Assembly (NCBI RefSeq): GCF_003334815.1
Contig: NZ_QOWO01000008.1
Length of the DNA stretch: 64,000 nucleotides
From: Escherichia coli
GTDB taxonomy: Bacteria > Pseudomonadota > Gammaproteobacteria > Enterobacterales > Enterobacteriaceae
Reading direction: 5' to 3' (one strand)
The translations under genes were made by a program, and so were the position numbers. Position 1 is the first letter of the stretch; each line of letters starts with the position of its first letter. Below are positions 58,668 to 62,991 of the stretch, one piece after another. The notes under the pieces were generated by a model that saw only the letters and a list, made by a program, of their open reading frames with translations, did no database searches and was not told where the DNA came from.

Positions 58668-60026
58668 TTAATTTCTTTGCGGCAACGTAATCCGGAACAC
58701 ATTATGCTTATTGAGATAGTGATACGTAGCACTTCCCCCATGTAATTCGGCAATCGCTTTGACTAAAGAAAGACCAAGTCCCTGACCTACGGAATGACGC
58801 GAATTATCTCCCCGCCAAAATCTACGGAAGAGTTTTTCAGGCTCATTAATTTTCGTTCCAGGGCTGGCGATATCAATATTAAGAGATCCGTTGGTATCAA
58901 GAAAACTGGTTATATGAATACGCGATTTTTCTGGCGAATATCGAATAGCGTTAACAATAAGATTCGATAACATTCGTTGCAGTAAAATTTTATCCGCAAA
59001 GATTTGCTGATTGCACTCGACCTTAAAGCAAATCTCTTTCTCGTCTGAAAGATATTCAAGATAGTCCAACAAATTTTCGACTTCCTTATTGAGAGAAAGC
59101 GAGTCCAGCTTCACCAAAACATTGTTTTTATCTGCCCTGGCAAGAAACAGTATGTTCTCTGTTAACCGCGAAATATTTTCCAGCTCTTCAATGTTTCCGG
59201 CAATTGTTTTTTGATATTCAGCGATACTTCTGGTTTGACTGAGCGTAACCTGATTCTGACCCAGTAATGCATTAATTGGCGTTCTAAGTTCATGAGCGAG
59301 ATCGTCAGCAAACTGACTTAGACGCTCAAAATCTTTGACTAAAGCATGATGCATTTTATTCAACGCCTGCCCAAGAGGTTTTAGTTCTCTCGGTAATGCG
59401 CTAACCTCAACAGGCTCTCGGCTATCGTTATAATTCAGCGCTTCCGTTACACCACTCAACTTTTTGATCTCTCGTAACCCCGTTCGGATTAACAGCGGAC
59501 TTAATACTGAGCACAGTATAATGGCGACAATGCAAATTATAATGCTATTGATTTTATACTGTTCAAGCATGTTATGTCTGGCTGAAGCCAATTTAGCCAC
59601 AGTAACCGTTAATGATGGCGAAACTTCATCAATATTAATTCGTAAAGCATCTATCTCTGTGTCATTAATAATGCTTCTGTAAATGCCAGCTGCGCTGATT
59701 GTCTCACTAGCAGGTATGTTATTTAACATGCCATCACTGACATTTGTCCGGTTAACAATTTTATTGATGCCATCACCATGAATGATCAAGATATCCTGAC
59801 TAACATCCATCATCCGGTTAAAGTATACAGGTAACGTATCTGGATTTACCCCATCAATTAACAACTGCTTGATCTGTGCTGTCCGGTTAATGAGTGTTGT
59901 ATCATCGCGCCATTTCAACTCACTTGCCAGGCCATTATAGAGAGTCCAGACAATTCCAGCGCCAGCAACAGACAGCAGCAATATAAAAAGCAAGGTTAAA
60001 CGGACGGTTATAGATAATCTTTTCAT
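58668..60026 (-). CDS. hprS: Sensor histidine kinase HprS (YedV)
   Basis: 452-aa ORF with two TM segments, H-box ELRTP and ATPase domain; matches recalled YedV. Confidence 0.94.
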   Translation of the reverse strand: MKRLSITVRLTLLFILLLSVAGAGIVWTLYNGLASELKWRDDTTLINRTAQIKQLLIDGVNPDTLPVYFNRMMDVSQDILIIHGDGINKIVNRTNVSDGMLNNIPASETISAAGIYRSIINDTEIDALRINIDEVSPSLTVTVAKLASARHNMLEQYKINSIIICIVAIILCSVLSPLLIRTGLREIKKLSGVTEALNYNDSREPVEVSALPRELKPLGQALNKMHHALVKDFERLSQFADDLAHELRTPINALLGQNQVTLSQTRSIAEYQKTIAGNIEELENISRLTENILFLARADKNNVLVKLDSLSLNKEVENLLDYLEYLSDEKEICFKVECNQQIFADKILLQRMLSNLIVNAIRYSPEKSRIHITSFLDTNGSLNIDIASPGTKINEPEKLFRRFWRGDNSRHSVGQGLGLSLVKAIAELHGGSATYHYLNKHNVFRITLPQRN

Positions 60027-60697
60027 TATTTTTTTACCGCTACGAATGAATAGCCCATCCCCCGGATTGTGGCGATTAGCTTTTCAGGAAAAGGATCATC
60101 AACTTTTGCGCGGAGCCTGCGAATGGCGACGTCCACCGTATTGGTATCACTATCAAAGTTGATTCCCCAAATTTCACTCGCAATAACCGTTCTGGGTATA
60201 ATTTCGCCAGCTCTGGAGGCCAGTAGCCAAAGTAACTGAAACTCCTTGCGCGTCAGTGTAATACTGATATTGTCCCTGCTCACACTTTGACTAACAGAGT
60301 CCATTCTTAAGCCGCTGATTTCTAATGTTGAATTCAAAGCGTGATGTTGCCTTAATTGTGCCCGAACCCTTGCCAGCAACTCAGAAAATGAAAAAGGTTT
60401 TACCAGATAATCATTTGCCCCACTGTCCAGCCCTCTGACTCTGTCATCGACAGAATCCCTTGCAGTAAGGCAAATAACAGGGGTTTGCTTTGCTGTTCTT
60501 AACGTTTGTAAGATCTGCCAGCCATCCATACCCGGAAGCATAATATCCAGAATGATCAATGCATAATCATCCTTCAGCGCAAGATAAAGCCCATCTCTGC
60601 CATCAGAAACGGCATCAATGACATAACCCGCTTCGGAAAGCCCCTGCGTTACCCACTCCTGGGTCCTTTGATTATCTTCAATAAGTAAAATCTTCAT
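60026..60697 (-). CDS. hprR: OmpR-family response regulator HprR (YedW)
   Basis: Track ORF starts at 60808; recalled HprR (223 aa) begins MKILLIEDNQRTQEWVTQGL at ATG 60697; 1-nt overlap with hprS. Confidence 0.93.
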   Translation of the reverse strand: MKILLIEDNQRTQEWVTQGLSEAGYVIDAVSDGRDGLYLALKDDYALIILDIMLPGMDGWQILQTLRTAKQTPVICLTARDSVDDRVRGLDSGANDYLVKPFSFSELLARVRAQLRQHHALNSTLEISGLRMDSVSQSVSRDNISITLTRKEFQLLWLLASRAGEIIPRTVIASEIWGINFDSDTNTVDVAIRRLRAKVDDPFPEKLIATIRGMGYSFVAVKK

Positions 60698-60742
60698 GAA
60701 AATAATATGCCATAAATCATATGTTATAGAAACAGCCTGGTT

Positions 60743-60760
60743 CATTACAAAATTGTAATG
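60743..60760. promoter_or_regulatory. Palindromic HprR/CusR-type box in the hprR-hiuH divergent region
   Basis: Perfect palindrome CATTACAAAATTGTAATG between hprR and hiuH. Confidence 0.7.
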
Positions 60761-60829
60761 CTGCTGTAAGGTTACCCTGGACGCTTTTTCGCTATCCTCA
60801 AAACTCATTCACATGACAAGGATATAAAC

Positions 60830-61243
60830 ATGTTAAAGCGTTATTTAGTACTCTCCGTAGTAACGGCTGCATTTTCATTACCTTCTTTGGTCTATGCTGC
60901 ACAACAAAACATTCTTAGCGTGCACATTTTGAACCAGCAAACAGGAAAACCCGCTGCCGACGTGACAGTCACTCTTGAAAAGAAAGCGGACAACGGCTGG
61001 TTACAACTTAATACCGCCAAAACAGATAAGGATGGACGAATTAAGGCACTGTGGCCCGAGCAAACTGCAACTACGGGCGATTACCGTGTCGTATTTAAAA
61101 CCGGGGACTATTTCAAGAAACAAAATCTTGAAAGTTTCTTCCCTGAGATCCCCGTTGAATTTCATATTAATAAAGTGAACGAGCATTATCATGTGCCTTT
61201 ATTACTTAGCCAATATGGGTATTCAACCTATCGTGGCAGTTAA
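60830..61243 (+). CDS. hiuH: Periplasmic transthyretin-like 5-hydroxyisourate hydrolase
   Basis: 137-aa ORF with signal peptide and C-terminal YRGS; matches recalled YedX/HiuH. Confidence 0.94.
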
Positions 61244-61350
61244 TGCATAAATATGTAAAAGCAGATCTCTGCTACTGTTAGGGAGGACACTCCCTGACAG
61301 ATTAACAGTAAACGGCTCTTGCTGGCTAACGACAAAAAGTGTGATGGCTT

Positions 61351-62355
61351 ATGAAAAAGAATCAATTTTTAAAAGAATCAGATGTTACGGCCGAGTCGGT
61401 ATTCTTTATGAAGCGTCGGCAGGTGTTAAAAGCACTGGGCATCAGCGCAGCTGCACTTTCTTTGCCTCACGCTGCGCATGCCGATCTGCTTAGCTGGTTT
61501 AAAGGGAACGATCGCCCACCCGCCCCCGCCGGAAAACCGCTGGAGTTCAGCAAGCCTGCCGCCTGGCAAAATAACCTGCCACTGACGCCAGCAGATAAAG
61601 TCTCCGGTTATAACAACTTCTATGAATTCGGGCTGGATAAAGCCGATCCCGCCGCTAATGCTGGTAGCCTGAAAACCGATCCATGGACACTGAAAATCAG
61701 CGGCGAAGTGGCAAAACCATTGACCCTCGATCACGATGATTTAACCCGTCGCTTCCCGCTGGAAGAGCGTATTTATCGTATGCGCTGCGTGGAAGCGTGG
61801 TCGATGGTGGTGCCGTGGATTGGTTTTCCGCTGCACAAATTGCTGGCGCTTGCCGAACCCACCAGCAATGCGATGTATGTCGCTTTCGAAACAATTTATG
61901 CACCGGAACAGATGCCAGGCCAGCAGGACCGCTTTATCGGCGGCGGGCTGAAATATCCTTATGTCGAAGGATTGCGTCTCGACGAAGCAATGCATCCGCT
62001 CACACTGATGACCGTGGGTGTTTATGGCAAGGCGTTACCGCCACAAAATGGCGCGCCGGTGCGACTGATTGTGCCGTGGAAATATGGCTTTAAAGGGATT
62101 AAATCGATAGTCAGTATTAAGCTGACCCGCGAGCGTCCGCCAACCACCTGGAATCTGGCAGCGCCTGACGAATACGGTTTTTACGCCAACGTTAATCCGC
62201 ATGTTGATCACCCACGCTGGTCACAGGCTACCGAACGATTTATTGGTTCAGGCGGCATCCTCGATGTACAGCGCCAGCCAACGCTACTGTTTAATGGTTA
62301 CGCCGACCAGGTGGCATCGCTGTATCGTGGCCTGGATTTGCGGGAGAATTTCTGA
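61351..62355 (+). CDS. msrP: Periplasmic methionine sulfoxide reductase, molybdopterin subunit MsrP
   Basis: 334-aa ORF with Tat motif RRQVLKALG; matches recalled YedY/MsrP. Confidence 0.95.
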
Positions 62356-62991
62356 ATGCGTCTGACAGCAAAACAGGTGACATGGCTGAAAGTTTGCCTG
62401 CATCTTGCCGGATTGTTGCCGTTTCTCTGGCTGGTCTGGGCGATCAATCACGGTGGACTGGGTGCCGATCCGGTGAAAGATATTCAGCATTTTACCGGTC
62501 GCACTGCACTGAAATTTTTGCTGGCGACCTTGTTAATCACACCTCTGGCACGCTACGCAAAACAGCCGTTATTGATACGCACTCGCCGCCTGTTAGGCTT
62601 ATGGTGCTTTGCCTGGGCGACACTGCATTTAACCAGTTACGCATTGCTGGAGCTGGGCGTGAATAATCTGGCGTTATTAGGCAAGGAGTTAATTACCCGG
62701 CCTTATTTAACGTTAGGAATTATCAGCTGGGTTATTTTGCTTGCTTTAGCGTTTACTTCAACCCAGGCGATGCAGCGAAAACTCGGCAAGCACTGGCAAC
62801 AGTTGCATAATTTCGTCTATCTTGTCGCGATCCTGGCCCCAATACATTATCTGTGGTCAGTGAAGATTATTTCACCGCAGCCGCTCATCTACGCTGGGCT
62901 GGCTGTACTGCTTTTAGCCTTACGGTATAAGAAGTTGCGTTCCCTTTTTAACCGGTTACGCAAGCAGGTTCACAACAAAATATCTGTATAA
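62356..62991 (+). CDS. msrQ: Haem-binding membrane subunit MsrQ
   Basis: 211-aa polytopic ORF starting at the msrP stop; matches recalled YedZ/MsrQ. Confidence 0.95.

Follow-up and report, generated by a model that had tools for sequence, protein, structure and literature searches.

A known HprSR-hiuH-msrPQ module of Escherichia coli with a shared HprR/CusR box, a putative third half-site and unannotated intercistronic hairpins

Positions 58668 to 62991 of a 64,000-nucleotide stretch of Escherichia coli DNA (contig NZ_QOWO01000008.1 of assembly GCF_003334815.1; the whole stretch is referred to as the window) were analysed and can be assigned with near certainty to the chromosomal HprSR (YedVW) two-component system together with its divergent target operon hiuH-msrP-msrQ, operating by the published mechanism. 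Binding of the regulator, induction and operon structure have been shown by others, and nothing was found that contradicts the identification. A first-pass annotation had placed hprS, hprR, hiuH, msrP and msrQ here, intact and divergent, and its coordinates proved exact: none of the five open reading frames (ORFs) contains an internal stop and all have the lengths found in K-12. The gene identities and operon membership that it proposed are borne out by family models, by the RefSeq annotation of an identical strain, by near-identity to K-12 and by the literature, and its view of the module as known rather than novel was correct, the E. coli system having already been studied in detail. Its description of a hypochlorite/peroxide stress module stands in that induction by both oxidants has been published, while the real oxidant signal is disputed. 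The module, as established for E. coli, repairs periplasmic proteins oxidised by hypochlorous acid (HOCl), links copper to oxidative stress and is tied to the virulence of enterohaemorrhagic E. coli. The window adds only another near-identical allele of this known system, and the marginal value of the locus lies in a conserved putative third half-site next to the box and in an unannotated intercistronic RNA structure.

Gene content and comparison with K-12

Gene coordinates were obtained from a listing of ORFs combined with direct reading of positions 58000-64000 (Table 1). HprR matched the NCBIfam equivalog NF008567 along its whole length (483.3 bits against a cutoff of 353, model positions 1-223 of 223) and also exceeded the cutoff of the heavy-metal response regulator model TIGR01387 (382 bits against 279). 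HprS matched the heavy-metal sensor kinase model TIGR01386 from end to end (318 bits, cutoff 292.55); an HprS-specific equivalog is absent from NCBIfam, and the name rests on 99% identity to b1968. HiuH exceeded the cutoff of the equivalog NF011610 (297 bits against 217), ends in STYRGS, which carries the YRGS motif, and matched PDB 2G2N (E 1e-75) over its mature part, residues 24-137, which follows a signal peptide. MsrQ was identified by the equivalog NF003831 (241 bits against a cutoff of 130) and MsrP by NF003767 (505 bits against 207), with residues 45-334 of the latter matching PDB 1XDQ (E 2e-201) and with both the twin-arginine motif KRRQVLK and Cys146 (RCVEAWS) present in the alignment. 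From established knowledge of YedY, Cys146 is taken to be the Mo-ligand cysteine.

The hprR stop and the hprS start overlap by 1 nucleotide (nt) (TAATG), hprS lying immediately downstream of hprR, and the msrQ ATG directly abuts the msrP TGA stop. The divergent units are separated by a spacer of 132 bp between hprR and hiuH, and the hiuH-msrP spacer measures 107 bp. A longer hprR ORF of 260 residues (60026-60808), which runs through the operator, was rejected, as both the HprR model and the K-12 annotation fit the 223-residue start. Several E. coli chromosomes contain the 4.7-kb segment of the locus with 100% identity, and the RefSeq annotation of one such strain gives the same five genes with the same boundaries. 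The locus was found in 5421 of 5426 complete E. coli genomes, and the identity of the hprR-hiuH spacer is 95% or higher in virtually every E. coli genome. The remaining five genomes do not carry the locus, and copies were seen at 7-9 places on replicons labelled as plasmids.

In comparison with K-12 MG1655 (b1968-b1972), the synteny hchA-hprSR-hiuH-msrPQ-zinT, the orientation, the gene lengths and the overlap and abutment of the cistrons are the same, and all five proteins are equal in length and 98.5-99.5% identical. HprS is identical at 448 of 452 positions (S86G, V170I, S380G, Y381S) and keeps Met72, Met73, Met100, Met153, Cys165 and the H-box His245 (AHELRTP); HprR is identical at 222 of 223 (H137Q), with Asp51 present; HiuH at 135 of 137 (A11V and N22Y, both within the signal peptide); MsrP at 329 of 334 (T34A, A63P, K175M, Y284H, A319D); and MsrQ at 210 of 211 (L209I). 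None of these 13 substitutions falls on a residue with a published role. The hprR-hiuH spacer, box included, is identical at 132 of 132 positions, and because of this identity the published results on binding to the MG1655 spacer transfer directly to the window.

Two further differences from K-12 were recorded. The A-run at 61334-61338, 12 nt upstream of the msrP ATG, has five A residues here and six in K-12; the same run reads AAAACA in other lineages, and msrP has no obvious ribosome-binding site. The OmpC-like porin gene of the yedS locus, upstream of hchA, is intact here (55929-57116, plus strand, 395 residues; named 'porin OmpC' by the Prokaryotic Genome Annotation Pipeline in the identical strain) and a pseudogene in MG1655, and the small RNA (sRNA) gene rseX lies just upstream of it at 55527-55616.

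Table 1. Coordinates of the features of the HprSR-hiuH-msrPQ locus, as positions in the window.
Feature	Position	Strand	Basis or remark
hchA	57709-58560	+	ORF list; left neighbour of the module
Likely hchA intrinsic terminator, hairpin and U6 run	58596-58634	+	Convergent hchA/hprS spacer; left boundary of the module
hprS (yedV), sensor histidine kinase, 452 residues	58668-60026	-	TIGR01386, RefSeq, K-12 identity
hprR (yedW), OmpR-family response regulator, 223 residues	60026-60697	-	NF008567, RefSeq, K-12 identity
HprR/CusR box, CATTACAAAATTGTAATG = CATTACAA-AA-TTGTAATG	60743-60760		Repeat search; matches the published box
Putative third half-site, TGTAAG	60765-60770	+	Direct repeat of the TGTAAT arm (60754-60759), 11-bp period, hiuH side
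Putative hiuH -10 hexamer, TATCCT	60793-60798	+	Promoter alignment; no usable -35
hiuH ribosome-binding site, AAGGA	60818-60822	+	Read from the sequence; 7 nt before the ATG
hiuH (yedX), periplasmic transthyretin-like 5-hydroxyisourate hydrolase, 137 residues	60830-61243	+	NF011610, PDB 2G2N
Tandem RNA hairpins, unannotated	61260-61300	+	5-bp stem 61260-61273; 11-bp stem 61275-61300, loop GACA
msrP (yedY), molybdopterin catalytic subunit of the periplasmic methionine sulfoxide reductase, 334 residues, twin-arginine translocation (Tat) signal	61351-62355	+	NF003767, PDB 1XDQ
msrQ (yedZ), membrane haem-binding partner, 211 residues	62356-62991	+	NF003831, K-12 identity
Repetitive extragenic palindromic (REP) element	63025-63058	+	REP pattern with no mismatches, none in shuffles; forms a hairpin; right boundary of the operon, zinT beyond

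The HprR/CusR box and its half-sites

The box in the hprR-hiuH spacer is exactly the 18-mer CATTACAAAATTGTAATG that two papers print, where it is named YedW/HprR box or given as the CusR and HprR boxes of this spacer, and it occupies the published position, from 87 to 70 bp ahead of the hiuH ATG (60830). The inverted-repeat search resolved it into two 8-nt arms, CATTACAA and TTGTAATG, which are 100% complementary, around a 2-nt centre, AA, which is not self-complementary. The first-pass annotation had described an 18-bp perfect palindrome serving as operator; the position and the role as operator agree with the published box, but the repeat is not perfect, 16 of its 18 positions being self-complementary in an arrangement of 8, 2 and 8. 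The same annotation had called the cassette self-contained, which is not the case: CusSR, responding to copper, uses this box as well, and the cusR/cusC spacer is a further binding site of HprR. Because the operator is shared with the cus system, the sensor-regulator-effector cassette is not insulated.

Binding to this spacer has been published in several forms. Genomic SELEX (systematic evolution of ligands by exponential enrichment) found HprR bound to the hprRS/hiuH spacer with lower affinity and, with a stronger main peak, to the cusRS/cusCFBA spacer, and in O157:H7 HprR was enriched 27-fold at the hiuH promoter by chromatin immunoprecipitation with sequencing (ChIP-seq) and bound there in electrophoretic mobility shift assays (EMSA). 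A 2026 paper in Virulence prints no motif.

Conservation of the box was first evident in E. albertii, where it is identical at 18 of 18 positions and lies at the same distance from hiuH, with diverged immediate flanks. A wider scan was carried out with the pattern CATTACAANNTTGTAATG in one genome per species, returning at least 120 loci (the E. coli representative not being among the loci listed), and the neighbourhoods were checked by tblastn with the five proteins. A homologue of HprR/CopR with 42-96% identity starts 45-135 bp from the box in 15 of the 120 listed loci, all from other species (Gamma-, Beta- and other Proteobacteria), in most cases with a heavy-metal-type kinase after it. For about 77 of the 120, no related gene was detected in the neighbourhood, and these were set aside as chance or unrelated occurrences. 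A locus of Halomonas sp. (L075, positions 1-1137) carries an HprR homologue (50% identity), the box (608-625) and a periplasmic HiuH homologue (54% identity), with no msrPQ downstream of the latter, so that the core of regulator, box and hiuH exists without the reductase genes. Judged by these comparisons, the box is the general operator of the CopR/CusR/HprR clade, which agrees with the published common ancestry of HprR and CusR and their recognition of the same sequence. In three loci of Verrucomicrobia that encode a CopRS-like pair (L004, a metagenome-assembled genome, L058 and L064) the box stands just downstream of the kinase gene, and in L004 it occurs twice, at 10624-10641 and 10869-10886, 245 bp apart.

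The closest relative of the arrangement is the E. coli CusSR/cusCFBA locus, with the CusR box AAAATGACAATTTTGTCATTTT and the same divergent layout of regulator and effector. Both boxes are inverted repeats of the form ATNACAA-NN-TTGTNAT, which at hprR stands next to the gene of a CopR/CusR-subfamily regulator, and in both a third half-site TGT(A/C)A(G/C) follows 11 bp on, on the effector side; the distances from box centre to effector ATG are similar (78.5 bp for hiuH, 80.5 bp for cusC), and each regulator binds the box of the other. The two loci differ at one arm position per half-site (T/A in the hiuH box, G/C in cus), in the signal (copper/silver for CusSR) and in the effector (a resistance-nodulation-division efflux pump), and cusR has a strong ribosome-binding site (GGAGGA) whereas none is visible before hprR (60698-60728, minus strand). 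In the CopRS/PcoRS-type copper systems of other Proteobacteria an identical CATTACAA-NN-TTGTAATG lies 45-135 bp upstream of a regulator 43-58% identical to HprR, with a heavy-metal-type kinase next. These differ in the effector, a divergent protein of about 580-610 residues with a Tat signal (a CopA/PcoA-type multicopper oxidase by reading of its N-terminus, the name being provisional), and in that most loci have a symmetrical operator of four half-sites (TGAC-N5-box-N5-GTCA).

A resemblance at operator level, without membership, was also seen in peptide-antibiotic modules of Firmicutes that look like the BceRS-BceAB type, a family name read from gene sizes and order. Next to an OmpR-family regulator they have the same 8-2-8 repeat as an intergenic element, and in many cases TGTAATG recurs just downstream, but the regulator is only about 30% identical and the box comes after the kinase gene and before the genes of an ATP-binding cassette (ABC) transporter. 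In these Firmicutes/Tenericutes loci (L018 10009-10026, L074 6634, L087 3044, L022 8946 and about 10 more), CATTACAA-NN-TTGTAATG follows directly after the stop of a kinase of about 338 residues, with the regulator, about 30% identical to HprR, upstream and an ABC ATPase and a permease of about 690 residues downstream.

The third half-site was delineated by alignment. A gap-free alignment of the E. coli cusC promoter with three hiuH promoters, from E. coli, E. albertii and Halomonas, extends over the box, the third half-site and a -10-like hexamer, with TATCCT (E. coli), TATCTT (E. albertii), CATGAT (Halomonas) and TAAAGT (cusC) at the same distance from the box. TGTAAG aligns with TGTCAC of the K-12 cusC promoter (L002 1034-1039), 11 bp after TGTCAT, and with GTAAGG in the hiuH promoters of both E. 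albertii and Halomonas. When the 15 CopR/CusR/HprR-type loci were compared with the regulator gene oriented to the left, GT[CA]A was present at exactly +6 to +9 after the box, on the effector side, in 11 of them, against about 1/128 expected per locus; a mirrored TGAC was seen on the regulator side in many copA-type loci, and no outer half-site was seen on the hprR side of the box. The hiuH-side operator would accordingly comprise three half-sites on one face of the helix (ATTACA, TGTAAT 10 bp on and TGTAAG 11 bp further), in a geometry that is probably the same at cusC. A scan for sigma-70 and terminator consensus sequences found nothing usable in the hprR-hiuH spacer, and the matches within genes were at chance level (13 against 8.3±3.2). 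This, together with the missing -35, fits an activator-dependent hiuH promoter with the box centre placed near -53. If real, the third half-site would account both for the way in which a single box can serve a promoter that depends on an activator and for the cross-regulation by CusR and HprR. On the hprR side, a TATTAT hexamer ends 5 nt before the hprR ATG, which would be compatible with a leaderless or very short-leader mRNA, and TTGTAA-16-TATAAC, whose -35 lies inside the box, is an alternative; both are candidates for the hprRS promoter.

Direct repeats are the typical binding sites of OmpR/PhoB-family regulators, and a reading that we regard as possible but doubtful takes the direct repeat TGTAAT-N5-TGTAAG (60754-60770), head-to-tail as for PhoB/OmpR, as the unit of activation. 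The palindrome would then be formed by the inner half-sites of back-to-back operators for the divergent promoters, with the outer site on the hprR side lost in E. coli. The same 11-bp period at cusC (TGTCAT-N5-TGTCAC), the recurrence of GT[CA]A in 11 of the 15 independent loci and the mirrored TGAC of copA-type loci all speak for such an arrangement, but the third site is degenerate in the other 4 loci, the inverted arms stay perfectly conserved between very distantly related bacteria (partly a reflection of how the loci were selected) and the literature defines the box as an inverted repeat. The pho box of PhoB offers a likeness in regulator family, in the 11-bp half-site period and in an activator-dependent promoter without a -35. 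It differs in that its repeats are purely direct and lie 10 bp from the -10, whereas in the hiuH operator 22 bp separate the putative -10 from the nearest half-site, and the pair with the strongest conservation is inverted.

Oxidant and copper inputs to the box

In the published mechanism of HprSR, the inner-membrane kinase HprS responds to reactive chlorine species and, more weakly, to H2O2, with periplasmic Met72 and Met153 as proposed sensing residues and Cys165 in the second transmembrane segment needed for transmission, and phosphorylates HprR at Asp51. Phosphorylated HprR binds CATTACAA-AA-TTGTAATG in the 132-bp spacer and turns on the hiuH promoter, which has no -35, with hprRS expression also raised. 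One tricistronic mRNA then gives three proteins: HiuH, exported by the Sec pathway, MsrP, exported by the Tat pathway with its Mo-molybdopterin cofactor, and MsrQ, a membrane haem protein. MsrPQ reduces methionine sulfoxide in periplasmic proteins and probably resets HprS, which would constitute a negative feedback, and the CusSR copper system feeds into the same box. The published record behind this scheme includes the YedW-dependent induction of hiuH, msrP, yedV and yedW by HOCl, with H2O2 a much weaker inducer; substitutions of HprS Met72 and Met153 that render the kinase constitutive or blind to the signal; the C165A substitution, which blocks signal transmission; and the dampening of induction by MsrP, which suggests a methionine redox switch that MsrP resets.

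Several points weigh against this scheme or against its application to the window. The physiological signal, H2O2 or HOCl, is disputed: peroxide sensing through Cys165 and HOCl sensing through periplasmic Met72/Met153 have both been proposed, and HOCl was the better inducer in the later study. HprR is reported from genomic SELEX to have a lower affinity for its own spacer than for the cus spacer. Induction has been published for K-12 and O157:H7, and the alleles found here carry HprS S86G, V170I, S380G and Y381S and HprR H137Q. The sigma-70 consensus scan finds no promoter in the hprR-hiuH spacer, and both the assignment of the -10 and the position of the box at -53 are guesses from alignment.

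In an alternative reading, the main physiological input to hiuH-msrPQ would be copper, acting through CusS/CusR on what would be a CopR-family 'copper box', with HprSR secondary or modulating. CusR and HprR recognise the same sequence, CuSO4 induces msrP in a CusSR-dependent manner through the box used by HprR, gain-of-function mutants of cusS up-regulate hprRS and hiuH, the main genomic SELEX peak of HprR lies at cusRS/cusCFBA and its own spacer gives only a minor peak, and elsewhere the same box stands between copR-like regulators and genes resembling multicopper oxidases with a Tat signal. Primacy of copper is nevertheless considered improbable: one ChIP study of CusR saw its sole peak at the cus spacer, the enrichment of HprR at hiuH by ChIP is strong (the 27-fold value given above), and the copper and HprSR inputs are not mutually exclusive.

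The statistics for the box as a functional element are by themselves weak, being suggestive but not decisive. A perfect inverted repeat with 8-nt arms was obtained in 251 of 20000 dinucleotide shuffles of the 132-bp spacer when a gap of 0-4 nt was allowed and in 181 of 20000 with a gap of 0-2 nt. The window contains three 8-2-8 repeats against about one expected, the other two lying inside coding sequence. A motif search allowing up to 3 mismatches (1 match against 0.33 expected) was uninformative as a significance test and was replaced by the spacer shuffles. The function of the box is argued from its conservation and from the published binding data. That the inverted repeat arose by chance in an AT-rich spacer and has no regulatory role would accord with the excess of 8-2-8 repeats in the window and with a motif that, at up to 3 mismatches, is not rarer than in shuffles, but it deserves almost no credence given that such a repeat arises in only 0.9-1.3% of spacer shuffles, that the other two repeats are inside genes and that the box is conserved in E. 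albertii, Halomonas and the 15 CopR-type loci, and it is refuted by the published SELEX, ChIP and EMSA binding and reporter data.

Intercistronic hairpins and surrounding sequence

The hiuH-msrP spacer encodes a tandem pair of hairpins that is highly stable (dG -26 kcal/mol, z -6.4, with none of 200 shuffles as stable), the spacer as a whole giving a z of -5.0. The 11-bp stem CUGUUAGGGAG/CUCCCUGACAG contains one U.G pair, and because of this pair it is complete only on the mRNA strand. In a comparison of 6 sequences, including K-12, three divergent E. coli lineages and E. albertii, both stems were invariant while the loop differed in 5 (GACA, GTGG, GTGA, GAGA and AACT being the variants of its 4 nt), with a substitution density many times that of the surrounding spacer. 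The pair looks like a constrained RNA structure with a loop that would be either unconstrained or prone to mutation. The hairpins have no Rfam match and coincide with no annotated feature, and nothing relevant came up in a search of the literature for a hiuH-msrP hairpin. The pair occurs once per genome, which led to the rejection of a repeat family, and as no U-run follows, the idea of an intrinsic terminator was also rejected.

Reverse transcription PCR in K-12 has shown hiuH-msrP-msrQ to be one tricistronic transcription unit. No consensus promoter was found between hiuH, msrP and msrQ on the plus strand, which is compatible with co-transcription but no proof of it. The hairpin pair may perhaps act as an mRNA-stabilising or processing element that sets the relative levels of HiuH and MsrPQ; if functional, it could fix the HiuH:MsrPQ ratio and uncouple the expression of hiuH from that of msrPQ. 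Two elements are tentatively advanced together, both perhaps undescribed: a three-half-site operator that hiuH and cusC would have in common and that would be conserved throughout the CopR/CusR/HprR clade, and a hiuH-msrP hairpin involved in processing, stability or partial termination.

At the left boundary of the module, the convergent hchA-hprS spacer measures 107 bp, and folding of its plus strand (58561-58667) gave a 14-pair hairpin at 58596-58628 followed by UUUUUU. A clear hprS terminator was not found in the same spacer, the fold of the minus strand being weak (z +1.0). Rfam at its gathering thresholds gave no match within 58.5-63.3 kb.

Elsewhere in the window, a second canonical REP element (25448-25481) adjoins a borderline Rfam match to the sRNA ES036 (CssrF) at 25484-25525 (38.1 bits against a gathering score of 37.6), which may be REP-associated rather than a real sRNA gene. 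The gene of the sRNA DsrA (47105-47191, minus strand, 102 bits) and a cluster of three tRNA genes (15299-15598, minus strand) are ordinary content of the E. coli chromosome.

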